Shown: positions 45,406 through 58,924 of the stretch, in pieces
Layout of the letters: the number at the start of each line of letters is the position of its first letter
Position numbering within the stretch: the first letter of the stretch is position 1
Virus record (IMG/VR): IMGVR_UViG_3300029288_000060
Location: 32,001-96,000 of that record
Direction: 5' to 3' (one strand)
DNA: 64,000 nucleotides
From: a virus
Lineage: Duplodnaviria; Caudoviricetes
Program-made: the position numbers and the translations under genes
The notes under the pieces: model-generated
What the model saw: the letters and a program-made list of their open reading frames with translations, nothing else
Database searches by the model: none
What the model was told of the DNA's origin: nothing

Positions 45406-45495
45406 TGGGGCAGGAGGTAGGACTTGAACCTACAATTGTTGGTTTCTCGTTTTATCGAGCCGGCTCCCATGCGCTTCCATTAGGCGACTCCTGCC
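45406..45495 (-). ncRNA. tRNA-like RNA lacking a canonical anticodon arm
   Basis: GGCAGGAG/CTCCTGCC acceptor helix, encoded CCA, D arm with GG, T arm GTAGG-TTCAAGT-CCTAC; 36-nt irregular central arm. Confidence 0.8.
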
Positions 45496-53614: not shown

Positions 53615-54472
53615 ATGAGTCTAGTTAAATGTATGATATGTGAAAAAGAATATAAAAGTTTAAAAGGAATTTCAACACACATTATTGTTCATAAGATCAC
53701 AGCTTATGAATATTATGAAAAATTCTTAAAAAAAGAAAATGAAGGTGTGTGTTTAAATCATGGTAAAGTTAAAGATTGTAAAAAAGATACTACATGGATA
53801 AATATGGTTGTTGGTTATCATAAATATTGTAGCGTAAAATGTATGACTAAATCTGACAACTTTAGAAAAATGTCTTCAGAATCAAAAAAAGGTGATAAAC
53901 ACTGGTTAAAGAAAGAAGGTAATATACATCCAAATAAAAATAAAACTTATGAAGAAATTTATGGATTAGAAAAAGCAAAACAATTAAAAGAAAATTTATC
54001 ATGGTTAGGTAAACAATTAACTGGTTTAAAAAATCCATTCTATAATCATAATCATACAAACAAAACTCGTGAAATTCTTAGAAATAACAAACTTGGAAAA
54101 ACAAACATTGAATTATATGGGTGCGATAAAGCAAAAGAAATTAAATTAAAACAATCAAAACCACAGAAAAAACCTTGGTTATCAGAAAACAATCAACTTT
54201 ATACTTCGAAATTTTACAATAAAAAATTTAGAAAACAAATTCTCATAGATCAAAATATGTTATGTGGTTATTGTAGTTGCAAACTGTTTAAGAATTATAG
54301 ACATTTGCATCATATAAATTTCATAAAATGTGATGATAGAAGAGAAAATTTAATTTATTTATGTCCATCATGTCATGGTAAAACAAAAAATAGAGTAATA
54401 TATAAAGAAACCATGAAATTTTTAAATGATAGAAATCAAATGATTTTAGAATCTGTAAACAAGAAAGGTTAA
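53615..54472 (+). mobile_element. free-standing HNH homing endonuclease (Zn finger, NUMOD3-like repeats)
   Basis: EYYEKFLKKENEGVC module; KTYEEIYG, NPFYNHNHT; CGYC...HHIN...D...NLIYLCPSCHGK. Confidence 0.85.
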
Positions 54473-54518: not shown

Positions 54519-56772
54519 ATGTCAAACGTATCACCAGGGGTAGATCTTTAAAAGAATATGCCCTCTTAATAGGAATAGAAAACTATTAAGTAATAAACTG
54601 GGTGAATTGCTGGAACGCTAAATCAATATTTTTTGATATGCCAATCAGCAGCTAAGCTCATCGAATAAGGATTTTTGTAGATGAGAAAGTTCAGAGACTA
54701 GACAGTGAGGATCCTTAAACCAATAATCTGTCAAACAGCGCCCAGTACTCAAACTCTAATAGAGATGAGTAAAGATATAGTCCAAGCTTATAGGAAACTA
54801 TAAGGGATAGAACTAGTATTCAAAAATAATAGATCTCAGTAGCTATGTTCAATCAGTTCCTAGTACAATTGGTTGTATAATGGCATTAACTAGGAAAGGT
54901 AGAGATAATCAGTTTACGTTTGTAGGGTCAAGAGCAGAATTAATTTCTGGTTGGGGCGAACCTAATATTAATGACTATGGTAAAAACTATGGTCAAGGTT
55001 TGTACGAAGCATACAACTTTTTAGGAGAATCTGGAGCTCTTTATTTTCAGAGGTGTTTACCAGACGATGCATCATTTTCAAATATTAAAATTAACGCAGA
55101 TTTAGCGGTTTCTGACGCAACTGCAATTATTTCAGTAACATATGTTGATAGTTTAAATACAATTGATGAAATTCAAACTGCCCTTGTTTCTGCAGGAACT
55201 ACTTATCCAATTTGTATTTTATATCCTATCGGAAGAGGTGAATATTATAATCAGATTGGCGTAAGATTCACTGAATATTCTAACCCTATGATAAGTGGTG
55301 TTTATGTTATGGATATTTATGAAAAACAATCTGATGGAGATGATGTAATCATTGAATCATTTGAAGTTTCATTTGATCCAAAATCTACTGATTCATCTGG
55401 AGATTCAATTTTTATTGGCTACATTTTGGAAATGTATTCTTCAGTTTTAAGATGTGAAATGACATTAGCGTCTGGTGCTTATACATCTGGTTATGAATTG
55501 GTTGCAAAAATTTACGATAAGGATATAGGAAGTGTATCAGTTACTGAAACTACAGCAACCGCAGAGATTAGTGATAATAAACAAGTATTTACAGATTGGG
55601 AAACTACTCCAGAAACTGGTAATGCTACGTATATGGTTGTTGCAAAAGACGGAAAAGGAAATATTTTATATGGTTGGTTAGGAGCAGCAACAGGAACTGA
55701 TTTTGACCATGTTAATGTTTTTGATGGAAGAAATTTGACCACAGCTTCAAGAGGATGGGTAGGAGATACAAGTGCTTTTGATACATCTAGCACAATTACT
55801 TATGAAGTTAAAAAATCTAATTCTTCAATTGCAGATCCTTTTATATCTTCAACTCCAGTTCCTTTAAAGAAAGGGTCAGATGGAACTCTTTTAGATGCAT
55901 CTGGAGACTTAGATACCACAGTTGCCACACAGGTTTTGGCAGAAGGTTATGCAGGAACTTTAACTAATCCTATAACTGGAATTACAGAGGATGCAATTAC
56001 AGATACAGAAAATGTTTATTTTACAATGACTTTTGATGGAGGTTACCCTTCCAGCGTAAAACAACAAATTTCTACGTTAGTTCAAACAAGAAGGGATGGA
56101 GTAGCAATTCTTGATAATGGAGATAACTCTTCATACAATATTGCAATTGCTTCTAGAACAAATACAAATACTTATAATAACTATTACACTGCTCTTTATG
56201 AAGAATATAATAAAGTTTATGATATTTTTACAGGTCAAGATATTTGGGTAAGTCCTGTTTATCATATGGCGTATATTCTTCCAAGAAATGACACTGTTGC
56301 AGAACTTTGGTATGCTGCAGCTGGTTTTAATAGAGCAGCAATTGACACAATTAAAGAACTTAGATTTAATCCAAAATTGGGTCAGAGAGATGGAATGTAT
56401 TTAAAACAATTAAACCCAATAGTGAAATTTAGTAATGGTTATACTGTTTGGGGTCAATTAACAAGTCAGGCAAAACCATCTGCTTTACAGGATTTAAATA
56501 TTGTTAGATTAGTTTTATATTGCAAAAAGAGCATTGAAAATTTTGCAAGATATTTTGTATTTGAAATGAATGACCAAATTACATGGAATAAATTCAATAA
56601 TGAAGTAGTGGGTTTCTTAGAAGAAATTAAGAGAAAAAGAGGTCTTTACTCATTTAATGTTAATACCTATGCCACAGACTATATGAAAAAGACGAAGACA
56701 TTCACTTGCGATATTGAGCTATACCCGGTCCGGACAGTAGAAAAAATTGAATTAAATTTCTTTATTAAGTAA
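54519..56772 (+). CDS. tail sheath protein, split by group I intron (exons 54519-54541 and 54816-56772; 659 aa)
   Basis: Spliced N-terminus MSNVSPGVYSKIIDLS matches sheath SPGVY..IDLS motif; C-terminal WYAAAGFNRA, LNPIV, VWGQLT, LNIVRL, FVFEMND. Confidence 0.9.
54542..54815 (+). mobile_element. group I intron (IA-like, ORF-less, 274 nt)
   Basis: P GAATTGCTGGAA 54604, Q AATCAGCAGC 54643, R GTTCAGAGACTA 54689, S AAGATATAGTCC 54772; P1 U.G, P2, P3 ACTGGGTG/CGCCCAGT, P7.1, P8, P9 with GAAA loop. Confidence 0.93.
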
Positions 56773-56842: not shown

Positions 56843-58924
56843 ATGATACAATGTCAAATATGTAAAAAAGAATTTGAAAAACCATCAAGTTTAGTTTCAC
56901 ATCTAAGTAATCCAAAAGGAAATTGTAAAATTTCAATAAAAGAATATTACGATAAATATTTAAGAAAAGAAAATGAGGGTATATGTCAGGTATGTAAAAA
57001 AGAAACATATTTTGCAGGAATAGTACAAGGTTATCCAACTACTGTTTGTAAATATTGCAAGAGCAAATTAGAAAAAACAAAATTATTAAAAAAGATAAAC
57101 AGCGGCAAAAAAAGAGAAATGTTAGATAAAGAAAAAGAAGTAAAAAAAATAAATGATGGTTACTATGATTTTCCTATTCAATGTGAATTATGTAAGGAAT
57201 CAAACTCAATTTACAAATGTAAAACATATAAAGCTTTATCAACACATTTAAGATTTATTCATCCACAAACAACAATAAAAGAATATTATGATAAGTATCT
57301 CAAAAAAGAAAATGAGGGTATATGTCCAATTACTGGAAAACAAACTAATTTTAAAAATTTAAGAGAGGGGTATTTTGTATATAAAAATAAAGGAACTTGT
57401 GTAAAAGATTCTATTATAATTAAAAAATCTAAAGATACAATTTTTAAAAATCATGGGGTAACTGCCCCAACATATGTAAATACAGAACAAAGAGTAAGAA
57501 ATTATAAAAATACAGTTAAAAAAAGAATTGACTTAAATAATGAAAGAATTAACTTAATTAGTTTACTAAGAAAATTAACTATTGATAAAACAAACAAAAA
57601 CCAATGTCAAATATGTGGAAGAATATTTAGAGATACAAATCAATTAGGCTTGCATATTAAGATTCATAACATCAAAATAAAAGAGTATTATGATATATTT
57701 TTCAAAAAAGAAAATGAAGGGTTATGCCCAATTTCAAATCTAGAGACCAATTTTGATTCTTTAGAAAGAGGATATTTTAAATATCATAAATTATTTATTA
57801 CTTATACTGATGAAATTAAAAATGGAAATAAAAAAAGAAGAATAGATTATATTCAAGAAAAGATAAAAATGTTTGAAAATATATTTGATGTTCAATTTAT
57901 TGATCTAAAAGATATCGAACATATTGGAGATTTAACAAGAATTAAATGTAATAAATGCGGAACTATTTACAAAAATAGATTTACAAATTTAATTTCTGGA
58001 TTTGGAAAATGTGAAAGATGCAATCCAAGAAACAATCATAGATCAAGTCATGAAAAAGAAATGTATGAAACTATAAAAACTTTTATGAAAGATGAAATTG
58101 TTTTAAATAATTGTAAGCAAATAATAAAGAATCCAAATACAGGAAACAATCTTGAATTAGACATATATATTCCAAGTAAAAAAATAGCAATTGAATTTAA
58201 CGGATTGTATTGGCATTCTGAATTGATTTTAAACGAAAAAGCTGAGCGATATCATTTTACTAAATGGAATGAATGTAAAAAAGAGGGAATACAACTTATT
58301 CAAATTTTTGAGGACGAGTGGTATGAAAAGAAAGATATAGTACTATCAATGATAAAACATAAATTAGGTTATAATTCAAACAAAGTTATTTACGCAAGAA
58401 AATGTATAATCAAAGAAATTACGTCAAATGAAAAAAATAATTTTTTAGATTCCAATCATATTCAAGGAAGAGATTTATCTAAAATAAAATTGGGCGCTTT
58501 TTATGATAATAAATTAGTTGCTGTTATGACTTTTGGTTTAGGAAATATTTCTAGGGGTGGCAATCCATATGATTTAGAAAAGTGGGAGTTGTCAAGATTT
58601 GTTACAAAAAAAGAATACCATGTAATTGGAATAGCAGGGAAATTATTAGAATATTTTAAGAAAAATTACCATTGGAAAGAAATTTATAGCTATGCTGATT
58701 TAAGAATTAGTAATGGTAATTTATACAAAAAATTAGGATTTAATCTTATAAAACAAAATCCGCCAAATTATTTTTATGTATGGCAAACTAAACGAATTCA
58801 TAGATTTAATTTAAGGAAAACATTATCAGAACCAGAAAATATTCCAGAATGGAGATTACGCCTAGATCAAGGATATTATAGAATCTGGGATTGTGGTAAC
58901 TTAAAATTTAGTTTAACAAAATAA
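56843..58924 (+). mobile_element. Hef-like homing endonuclease with three Zn-finger modules
   Basis: 3x KEYYD..(L/F).KENEG(I/L)C; ELDIYIP..KIAIEFNGLYWHS; YARKC, NHIQG, WELSRF, SYADLR, IWDCG. Confidence 0.8.

Follow-up and report, generated by a model that had tools for sequence, protein, structure and literature searches.

A group I intron probably without a terminal guanosine

Group I introns typically end in a guanosine that ranks among their most conserved bases, because this base must enter the guanosine-binding site for exon ligation. Here we describe a natural group I intron that probably ends in an adenosine (A54815), located in the tail sheath gene of a jumbo phage of roughly 269 kb. 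This phage is represented by a 268,812-bp virus record of IMG/VR (IMGVR_UViG_3300029288_000060; completeness rating 74%), of which bases 32001–96000 were analyzed (referred to as the window, with a length of 64,000 nucleotides (nt); positions are those of the window unless stated otherwise).

A comparable natural group I intron is Cbu.L1917 from the Coxiella burnetii 23S rRNA gene, which is described as being without the canonical terminal G (Raghavan et al. 2007, J Bacteriol 189:6572, as cited in PMC3428280), as the window intron would be. The Coxiella intron is bacterial and resides in an rRNA gene, with no reading frame at stake, whereas the window intron is viral and interrupts a protein-coding gene, in which a slip of one base to the adjoining G would destroy the frame. 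The last base of Cbu.L1917 is reportedly an A. Unlike Cbu.L1917, the window intron also has matched relatives in nature whose last base is G, the comparison being one of setting and relatives. For Coxiella, an intron lacking this G is already on record, and what would be new here is the viral, protein-coding setting.

In its architecture, the window intron resembles phage introns of subgroup IA that carry a P7.1 hairpin (T4 td type), as well as a set of over 110 IMG/VR introns with the same P9 hairpin: the R/S core and P7.1, a P9 capped by GAAA, and the P9.0 pairing rule (detailed below) are as in these introns, with the subgroup assigned by likeness. In contrast to the window intron, most of these introns carry P9.1/P9.2 hairpins and end in ...AACAnnnnG. 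Group I introns in capsid and tail genes have been described in Cluster J mycobacteriophages and, as cited there, in the capsid gene of Tuc2009 (PMC3706429). As proposed for the window, the mycobacteriophage introns are self-splicing elements of late structural genes, in genomes that carry free-standing HNH genes; the hosts and genes differ from those of the window, and the passages of that account that were consulted mention no unusual terminal base (PMC3706429).

An intron splits codon 8 of the tail sheath gene

Rfam placed one group I intron within the 64-kb window, at 54532–54804 on the + strand, where the whole RF00028 model (1–253 of 253) aligned with a score of 100.8 bits (gathering score 50; E 6e-25). 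Its proposed boundaries and the adjoining exons are as follows.

54519..54541, + strand: first exon of the sheath gene, with the sequence ATG TCA AAC GTA TCA CCA GGG GT
54542..54815, + strand: proposed group I intron of 274 nt, with a G+C content of 34% and no open reading frame (ORF), based on Rfam and homologue alignment
54816..56772, + strand: exon 2 of the tail sheath gene, based on translation, Pfam, distant sheath matches and 79 related loci

Exon 1 runs from ATG 54519 to GGGGT 54541 and encodes MSNVSPG plus two bases of a Val codon, which would be completed by G54816 and followed by YSKIIDLS... (YSKIIDLSSYVQSVPSTIGCIMALTRKG...) up to the stop codon at 56770–56772. The intron splits codon 8 (Val, GU/G) of the gene, at the insertion point CCAGGGGT/GTATTC, and an in-frame UAA (54549–54551) halts translation of the unspliced RNA. 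The frame of exon 2 is open from 54817 and intact over 651 codons. A Pfam search revealed the sheath C-terminal domain Phage_sheath_1C (PF17482; 7.8e-09, above the cut-off), and the product resembles the tail sheath of phiR1-37 over its full length (26.6% identity, query coverage 100%). The tail sheaths of phiR1-37, AR9 and PBS1, all of them jumbo phages, align with it end to end at approximately 27% identity. These isolated phages are the closest at that level only, whereas metagenomic relatives of the sheath number in the hundreds at 55–86% identity, which makes this a large uncultured group of jumbo phages. No second sheath gene, which might relax selection, was found in the whole record; with a single sheath gene and an intact 651-codon exon 2, the gene must be expressed.

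A preliminary description of the window had reported a full group I core in the sheath gene, an ORF list lacking the first 29 residues of the protein, a P1 hairpin with its U.G splice pair at T54541, and a canonical G-binding pair in P7, and each of these observations stood up. The core is that matched by RF00028; the listed sheath ORF opens only at ATG 54880, so that 29 residues are lost; the U54541.G54560 wobble lies within GGGGUA/UGCCCU; and P7 shows a bulged A54695 followed by G54696–C54782, which we take to be the guanosine-binding pair by analogy with G264–C311 of Tetrahymena. The core, the P1 U.G pair and the P7 G–C pair that characterize group I introns are thus all present, and the near-universal terminal G is probably absent. 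Because the core model is matched in full, a terminal A would be a variant feature rather than a reason for exclusion from group I.

The sheath reading frame leaves two possible joins

An IMG/VR scan yielded 79 sheath-related loci, approximately 75 of which carry an uninterrupted gene with the N-terminus M..N[VI]SPGV[YF][ST]KIIDLS, position 9 being Tyr or Phe in every one of them. The alignment of these intron-less homologues over SPGV[YF][ST]KIIDLS agreed with the exon junction as it had been claimed earlier, and the join that they require is GGG GU? UAU UCA. Because a TAG at 54814–54816 lies in the frame of exon 2, this exon can start no further upstream, and the TAG together with the N-termini of the homologues places its start at 54816 or 54817. 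Only two joins are then in frame, and both encode the same protein; they are listed below with the canonical combination of splice sites.

Join (A): U54541 with A54815, intron ending in A54815, GGG GUG UAU UCA, junction GGGGUGUAUUCA, product MSNVSPGVYSKIIDLS...
Join (B): A54542 with G54816, intron ending in G54816, GGG GUA UAU UCA, junction GGGGUAUAUUCA
Canonical sites: U54541 with G54816, GGG GUU AUU CAA AAA UAA, junction GGGGUUAUUCA

The canonical combination runs into a stop codon, as the preliminary description had noted. Several other splice sites were considered and rejected. On the 3′ side, G54806 gives GUA UAG and thus a stop, G54832 is out of frame, and G54839 is in frame but removes the conserved YSKIIDLS that the window still encodes. 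On the 5′ side, U54545 and U54548 add residues that are absent from every homologue, and have no supporting guide pairing.

Introns at the same site in relatives

A protein search with the 630-amino-acid (aa) ORF of the sheath returned several relatives with a sheath ORF of exactly 630 residues, suggesting that their gene is interrupted in the same way. Three such relatives (L219, L220 and L221) were compared with the window, with the splice sites marked by a slash.

Window (this record): exon 1 ...CCAGGGGU/ and intron/exon 2 ...GAACUA/G UAU UCA
L219 (NCBI JBINOF010002845.1): exon 1 ...CCCGGGGU/ and intron/exon 2 ...UUAAAAAUG/U UAU UCA
L220 (ENA ERZ27298648 k119_415527): exon 1 ...CCAGGGGU/ and intron/exon 2 ...AGGAAAUG/C UAU UCA
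L221 (Logan SRR16951079_278): exon 1 ...CCAGGGGU/ and intron/exon 2 ...AAUCAAUG/C UAC AGU

The introns of these relatives align with that of the window at a mean column identity of 78%; the Rfam gathering score was reached by the L221 intron and by both introns of L220 (see below), while L219 remained beneath it. All three are like the window intron in P7 and in the short tail after P9, which lacks P9.1 and P9.2, and the P7 guanosine-binding pair after the bulged A is identical in them. Each of them interrupts the Val codon as GU/N, following an invariant U.G pair, and terminates in G (AUG/C or AUG/U, as opposed to CUA/G in the window). When aligned, the final positions U-G-C, U-G-U and U-G-C of the relatives correspond to U54814-A54815-G54816 of the window. 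This homology of the insertion site argues that join (A) is in the correct register, and that the window has an A in place of the relatives' terminal G.

The pairing of the exons with the guide is consistent with this register. The P1 hairpin contains both the 5′ splice site and the internal guide sequence (54554–54564).

54537..54564, + strand: P1 hairpin, GGGGUA 54537–54542 / UGCCCU 54559–54564

The U54541.G54560 wobble that marks the 5′ splice site is invariant among the four same-site introns, and the P1 pair that follows it covaries (C–G, C–G and U.G in the relatives, A–U in the window). The guide base beside the wobble G is a G in L219, L220 and L221 and U54559 in the window, and the first base of exon 2 pairs with it in four out of four cases (C–G, U.G and C–G, and G54816.U54559 in the window). 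Two further relatives with 630-aa sheath ORFs, P0013 (Logan ERR4678687, and a contig of 82,952 bp under Logan and ENA) and P0085 (Logan SRR28370465), probably carry introns as well. Scans of viral and genome contigs with AGATATAGTCCAANCTTA yielded no additional same-site introns, the tail of the window intron itself (GGAAACTATAAGGGATAGAAC) had no exact match in IMG/VR, and among phage entries of GenBank there was no near match to the region, the only matches being of approximately 60 nt to DNA polymerase introns.

P9.0 and P10 point to A54815 as the last base

In group I introns, the two bases that precede the last intron base usually pair with J7/9 to form P9.0. The elements of the window intron that bear on its 3′ end are the following.

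54785..54786, + strand: J7/9 bases A and G, predicted to form P9.0 with U54814 and C54813
54787..54804, + strand: P9 hairpin, CUUAUAG-GAAA-CUAUAAG, also present in more than 110 phage introns
54813..54814, + strand: predicted P9.0 3′ strand (C, U), immediately 5′ of the proposed last intron base
54815, + strand: proposed last intron base (omega), A, based on reading frame, site homology, P9.0 and P10

In L220 and L221, J7/9 ends in AU and an AU stands before the last G. The corresponding pairs in the window are A54785–U54814 and G54786–C54813, meaning that the A–U pair is kept while the U–A pair of the relatives has become G–C by changes on both sides. With G54816 as the last base, UA would face the AG of J7/9 and no proper pairs would form. 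The predicted P9.0 fits only the register in which A54815 is last.

The generality of this rule was examined with those IMG/VR introns, more than 110 in number, whose P9 hairpin CUUAUAGGAAACUAUAAG is that of the window, to which introns with a J7/9 ending in AG were added by a further scan of IMG/VR and metagenomes. The last intron base was called blind to J7/9, as the first G after an AAC/AAU tail motif. Both P9.0 pairs formed in 46 of the 112 distinct introns (shuffle mean 25.8, with none of 5000 shuffles reaching 46), and CU preceded the terminal G in 14 of the 20 introns with a J7/9 ending in AG as opposed to 1 of the 92 with other endings (Fisher 2e-12), although these figures are not true probabilities since the sequences are related. 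The pair types encountered were AA/UU, AU/AU, UU/AA and AG/CU. An alternative call of this base, from the position of the final in-frame stop, was also tried, and was abandoned for the motif-based call since it proved noisy, the frames often being open inside the intron tail; this noisier version likewise lay above all 5000 shuffles.

On the exon side, GUAUUC (54816–54821) can pair with GAAUAU (54554–54559) in a P10 of 6 bp directly beside P1. The ligated exons would consequently pair with the guide over 11 positions, including three G.U pairs, a pairing proposed in the preliminary description that held when it was read again. P10 alone would not separate join (A) from a model in which a base is missing from the sequence, whereas the predicted P9.0 does. 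Taken together, the earlier proposal that the intron ends at A54815 gained support from the GU/N cut of the same-site homologues and from the covariation in P9.0; it is short of proof, as join (B) yields the same protein.

Splicing at A54815 weighed against its alternatives

Under the favored reading, a free guanosine bound at the unchanged G54696–C54782 site in P7 would attack after U54541, as in a canonical first step. The 3′ splice site used in the second step would lie between A54815 and G54816, the intron ending in A instead of the near-universal G, and its position would be set by P9.0 together with the 6-bp P10 (54816–54821 with 54554–54559) that stacks directly on P1. The product would be GGG GUG UAU UCA, read as MSNVSPGVYSKIIDLS..., and from the sequence we infer that the RNA splices at A54815/G54816 and does so fast enough. 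Whether a working intron indeed ligates at this A with an unaltered G pocket and an adjoining decoy G, P9.0 and P10 overriding G-binding, is a proposition that we regard as evenly balanced.

A number of observations weigh against splicing at A54815. The A is carried by one metagenomic genome only, and the two assemblies in which it occurs (the IMG/VR record and ENA k141_647901 of 268,755 bp, identical over 4.9 kb including CTAGTATTC) may share the same reads. Relatives ending in G have an identical G-binding pair, so the pocket is not adapted to A, and in work on Tetrahymena a terminal A in a G-specific site was reportedly strongly impaired. The very next base, G54816, could compete as last base and give rise to a frameshifted mRNA, while the join one base further on, join (B), encodes the same protein. 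In addition, the homologues differ in the length of the tail after P9 (7 to 11 nt), and the position of the last base therefore rests on pairing and reading frame rather than on length. Finally, the P9.0 rule has its exceptions, with L219 keeping one of the two pairs and 6 of the 20 tails of the AG class lacking CU.

The deposited sequence might be wrong or non-viable, with a true G at 54815 or a base missing after G54816, in which case the intron would end in an ordinary G. This is unlikely in our view, even though the near-invariance of the terminal G, its presence in all three same-site homologues, the confinement of the A to one genome and the unadapted G-binding site all speak for it. Against an error, the two assemblies (268,812 and 268,755 bp, the ENA one k141_-named) agree over 4.9 kb and the CTAGTAT context is not a homopolymer. 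A missing base would moreover place UA before the last base and thereby break the P9.0 A–U pair kept in all homologues, and a lethal variant would not be expected to prevail in an assembly of 269 kb; a G as the true base at 54815 is nevertheless compatible with all of these points. If the A were a sequencing artefact, the finding would shrink to a mobile intron of the ordinary kind in a sheath gene. Distinctly less probable is that the intron has slid by one base, with cleavage after A54542 (paired with U54559), a canonical end at G54816 and the codons GGG GUA UAU UCA. Such an intron would retain its terminal G and encode the same Val-Tyr junction, with GTA as the Val codon, which many homologues without an intron also use (L003 and L004, the closest, among them), and the A54542–U54559 Watson-Crick pair would extend P1. 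It would, however, require cleavage one base beyond an intact and invariant U.G wobble, whereas in group I introns it is this wobble that sets the point of cleavage, and all three homologues cleave after its U. In addition, its P9.0 would set UA against AG without proper pairs, and no natural group I intron is known to us in which an A stands before the 5′ splice site.

The least probable of the alternatives is that U54541 and G54816 are used and a frameshifted mRNA results, with the sheath being obtained through a –1 slip on CAAAAAUAA or from ATG 54880, or with the gene being dead. A canonical G-binding site should prefer G54816, and a slip of the Lys-tRNA from A54824–54826 to A54823–54825, before the UAA, would restore the sheath frame as ...GVIQKIIDLS. 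This slip would replace the Tyr or Phe that is invariant at position 9 in approximately 75 homologues, even though the window still encodes YSK, and it would have to occur without a canonical slippery heptamer in the mRNA of a highly abundant protein. An internal start at ATG 54880 would forfeit 29 conserved residues, and this codon lacks a preceding Shine-Dalgarno sequence, while a dead gene is at odds with the sheath gene being single in the record.

Should splicing at A54815 be confirmed, the intron would constitute the second natural case and the first viral one, as well as the first in which a reading frame reports on the fidelity of splice-site choice. An A-ligating intron in an essential gene, beside a decoy G, would offer a ready-made test of whether P9.0 and P10 can replace G-binding, for which matched natural controls exist since three close same-site relatives end in G. 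Such an intron could also reveal what it costs the phage to choose a splice site without G-binding, a price that could lie in slow or error-prone processing of the transcript that encodes one of the most abundant proteins of the virion. The idea, put forward in the preliminary description, that slow splicing could throttle sheath synthesis is speculative.

Conservation of the intron fold

RNAalifold analysis of the four same-site introns yielded a fold of 60 pairs, 22 of which showed compensatory two-sided changes, and recovered P1, P2, P3, P4, P5, P7.1, P8 and P9. The shared fold and its compensatory pairs indicate that the ribozyme of the window has been under the same structural selection as its homologues. 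P4 alone contains three pairs with two-sided changes among the homologues. The remaining elements of the predicted fold are given below.

54566..54589, + strand: P2 hairpin, UUAAUAG / CUAUUAA
54598..54604, + strand: P3 5′ strand, CUGGGUG, partner 54739–54745
54607..54651, + strand: P4-P5 domain, P4 at 54607–54613 / 54645–54651, with P5 and P5a within
54694..54700, + strand: P7 5′ strand, GAGACUA, in which A54695 is bulged and G54696 belongs to the putative guanosine-binding pair
54701..54732, + strand: P7.1 hairpin, inserted between P7 and the P3 3′ strand
54739..54745, + strand: P3 3′ strand, CGCCCAG
54746..54771, + strand: P8 hairpin
54778..54783, + strand: P7 3′ strand, UAGUCC, with C54782 pairing with G54696

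Neighboring endonuclease genes and further introns

The sheath gene is flanked on both sides by genes that resemble those of endonucleases.

53615..54472, + strand: free-standing HNH endonuclease gene, 285 aa, matching several PHROG HNH families (best 6e-08)
56843..58924, + strand: second free-standing gene, homing-endonuclease-like, 693 aa, matching PHROG 3339 homing endonuclease (9e-91)

The HNH gene ends 47 nt before the start codon of the sheath gene, and the intron follows approximately 70 nt downstream of it. L221, in which the same-site intron is present, has an HNH homologue at the equivalent position (55% identical). HNH homologues are also found upstream of the intron-less sheath alleles of L056, L058 and L029, indicating that endonuclease and intron are not strictly linked. 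The arrangement in the window and L221, an ORF-less intron beside an HNH gene, is reminiscent of the collaborative homing by which, in the cyanophage psbA model, an ORF-less intron is reportedly mobilized by a neighboring free-standing endonuclease. The likeness to that model is one of adjacency and synteny, and the neighboring HNH gene probably serves to mobilize or maintain the intron. The 693-aa gene just downstream of the sheath gene is syntenic in L221, and its product has, besides the strong PHROG homing-endonuclease match, several C2H2-like zinc-finger repeats and a C-terminus that is Mom/GNAT-like in Pfam, an odd mix for a homing endonuclease.

A second intron site in the sheath gene lies 21 nt downstream of the first, after ...AUC GAU, and is occupied in L015, L024, L222, L223 and L220. 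The second-site introns of L015 (2683–3000), L024 (1–279), and L222 and L223 (upstream of the called ORF) are canonical and end in G, those of L015 and L024 having a P9.1/P9.2-like hairpin. L220 (879–1439) carries twin introns, with scores of 82.5 and 68.4 bits that both exceed the Rfam gathering score: its first-site intron ends in ...GGAAAUG and is followed by a 19-nt exon (CTATTCAAAGATCATCGAT) and then by the second-site intron. The two insertion sites together are occupied in at least eight contigs.

The genome contains a second group I intron outside of the window (L002:1511–1787, corresponding to G000:C1, approximately 104351–104627; 92.4 bits). This intron is canonical (...AAAUUG/GGA, with a J7/9 ending in AA), and exon 2 of its host gene matches PHROG virion structural protein families. 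Here too an ORF stands upstream, of 404 aa and stopping approximately 16 nt before exon 1 of the interrupted gene, and it had no HNH match in PHROGs. The view that an intron in a structural gene would be unusual, voiced in the preliminary description, did not withstand these comparisons: with introns published in capsid and tail genes, at least eight sheath contigs occupied and the second intron of the genome likewise in a virion gene, the location is ordinary.

Other observations

In two of the sheath-related loci (L038 and L039, 3001–5774), the sheath protein match extends over 2,774 nt as opposed to approximately 1,950 nt elsewhere, suggesting that approximately 0.8 kb of other sequence is inserted within the sheath gene; this insert gave no group I match at the Rfam gathering score. 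Elsewhere in the window, a tRNA-like element at 45409–45494 on the – strand scored 31.7 bits, just over the Rfam tRNA gathering score of 29, and carries a 29-nt insertion in place of the anticodon arm.

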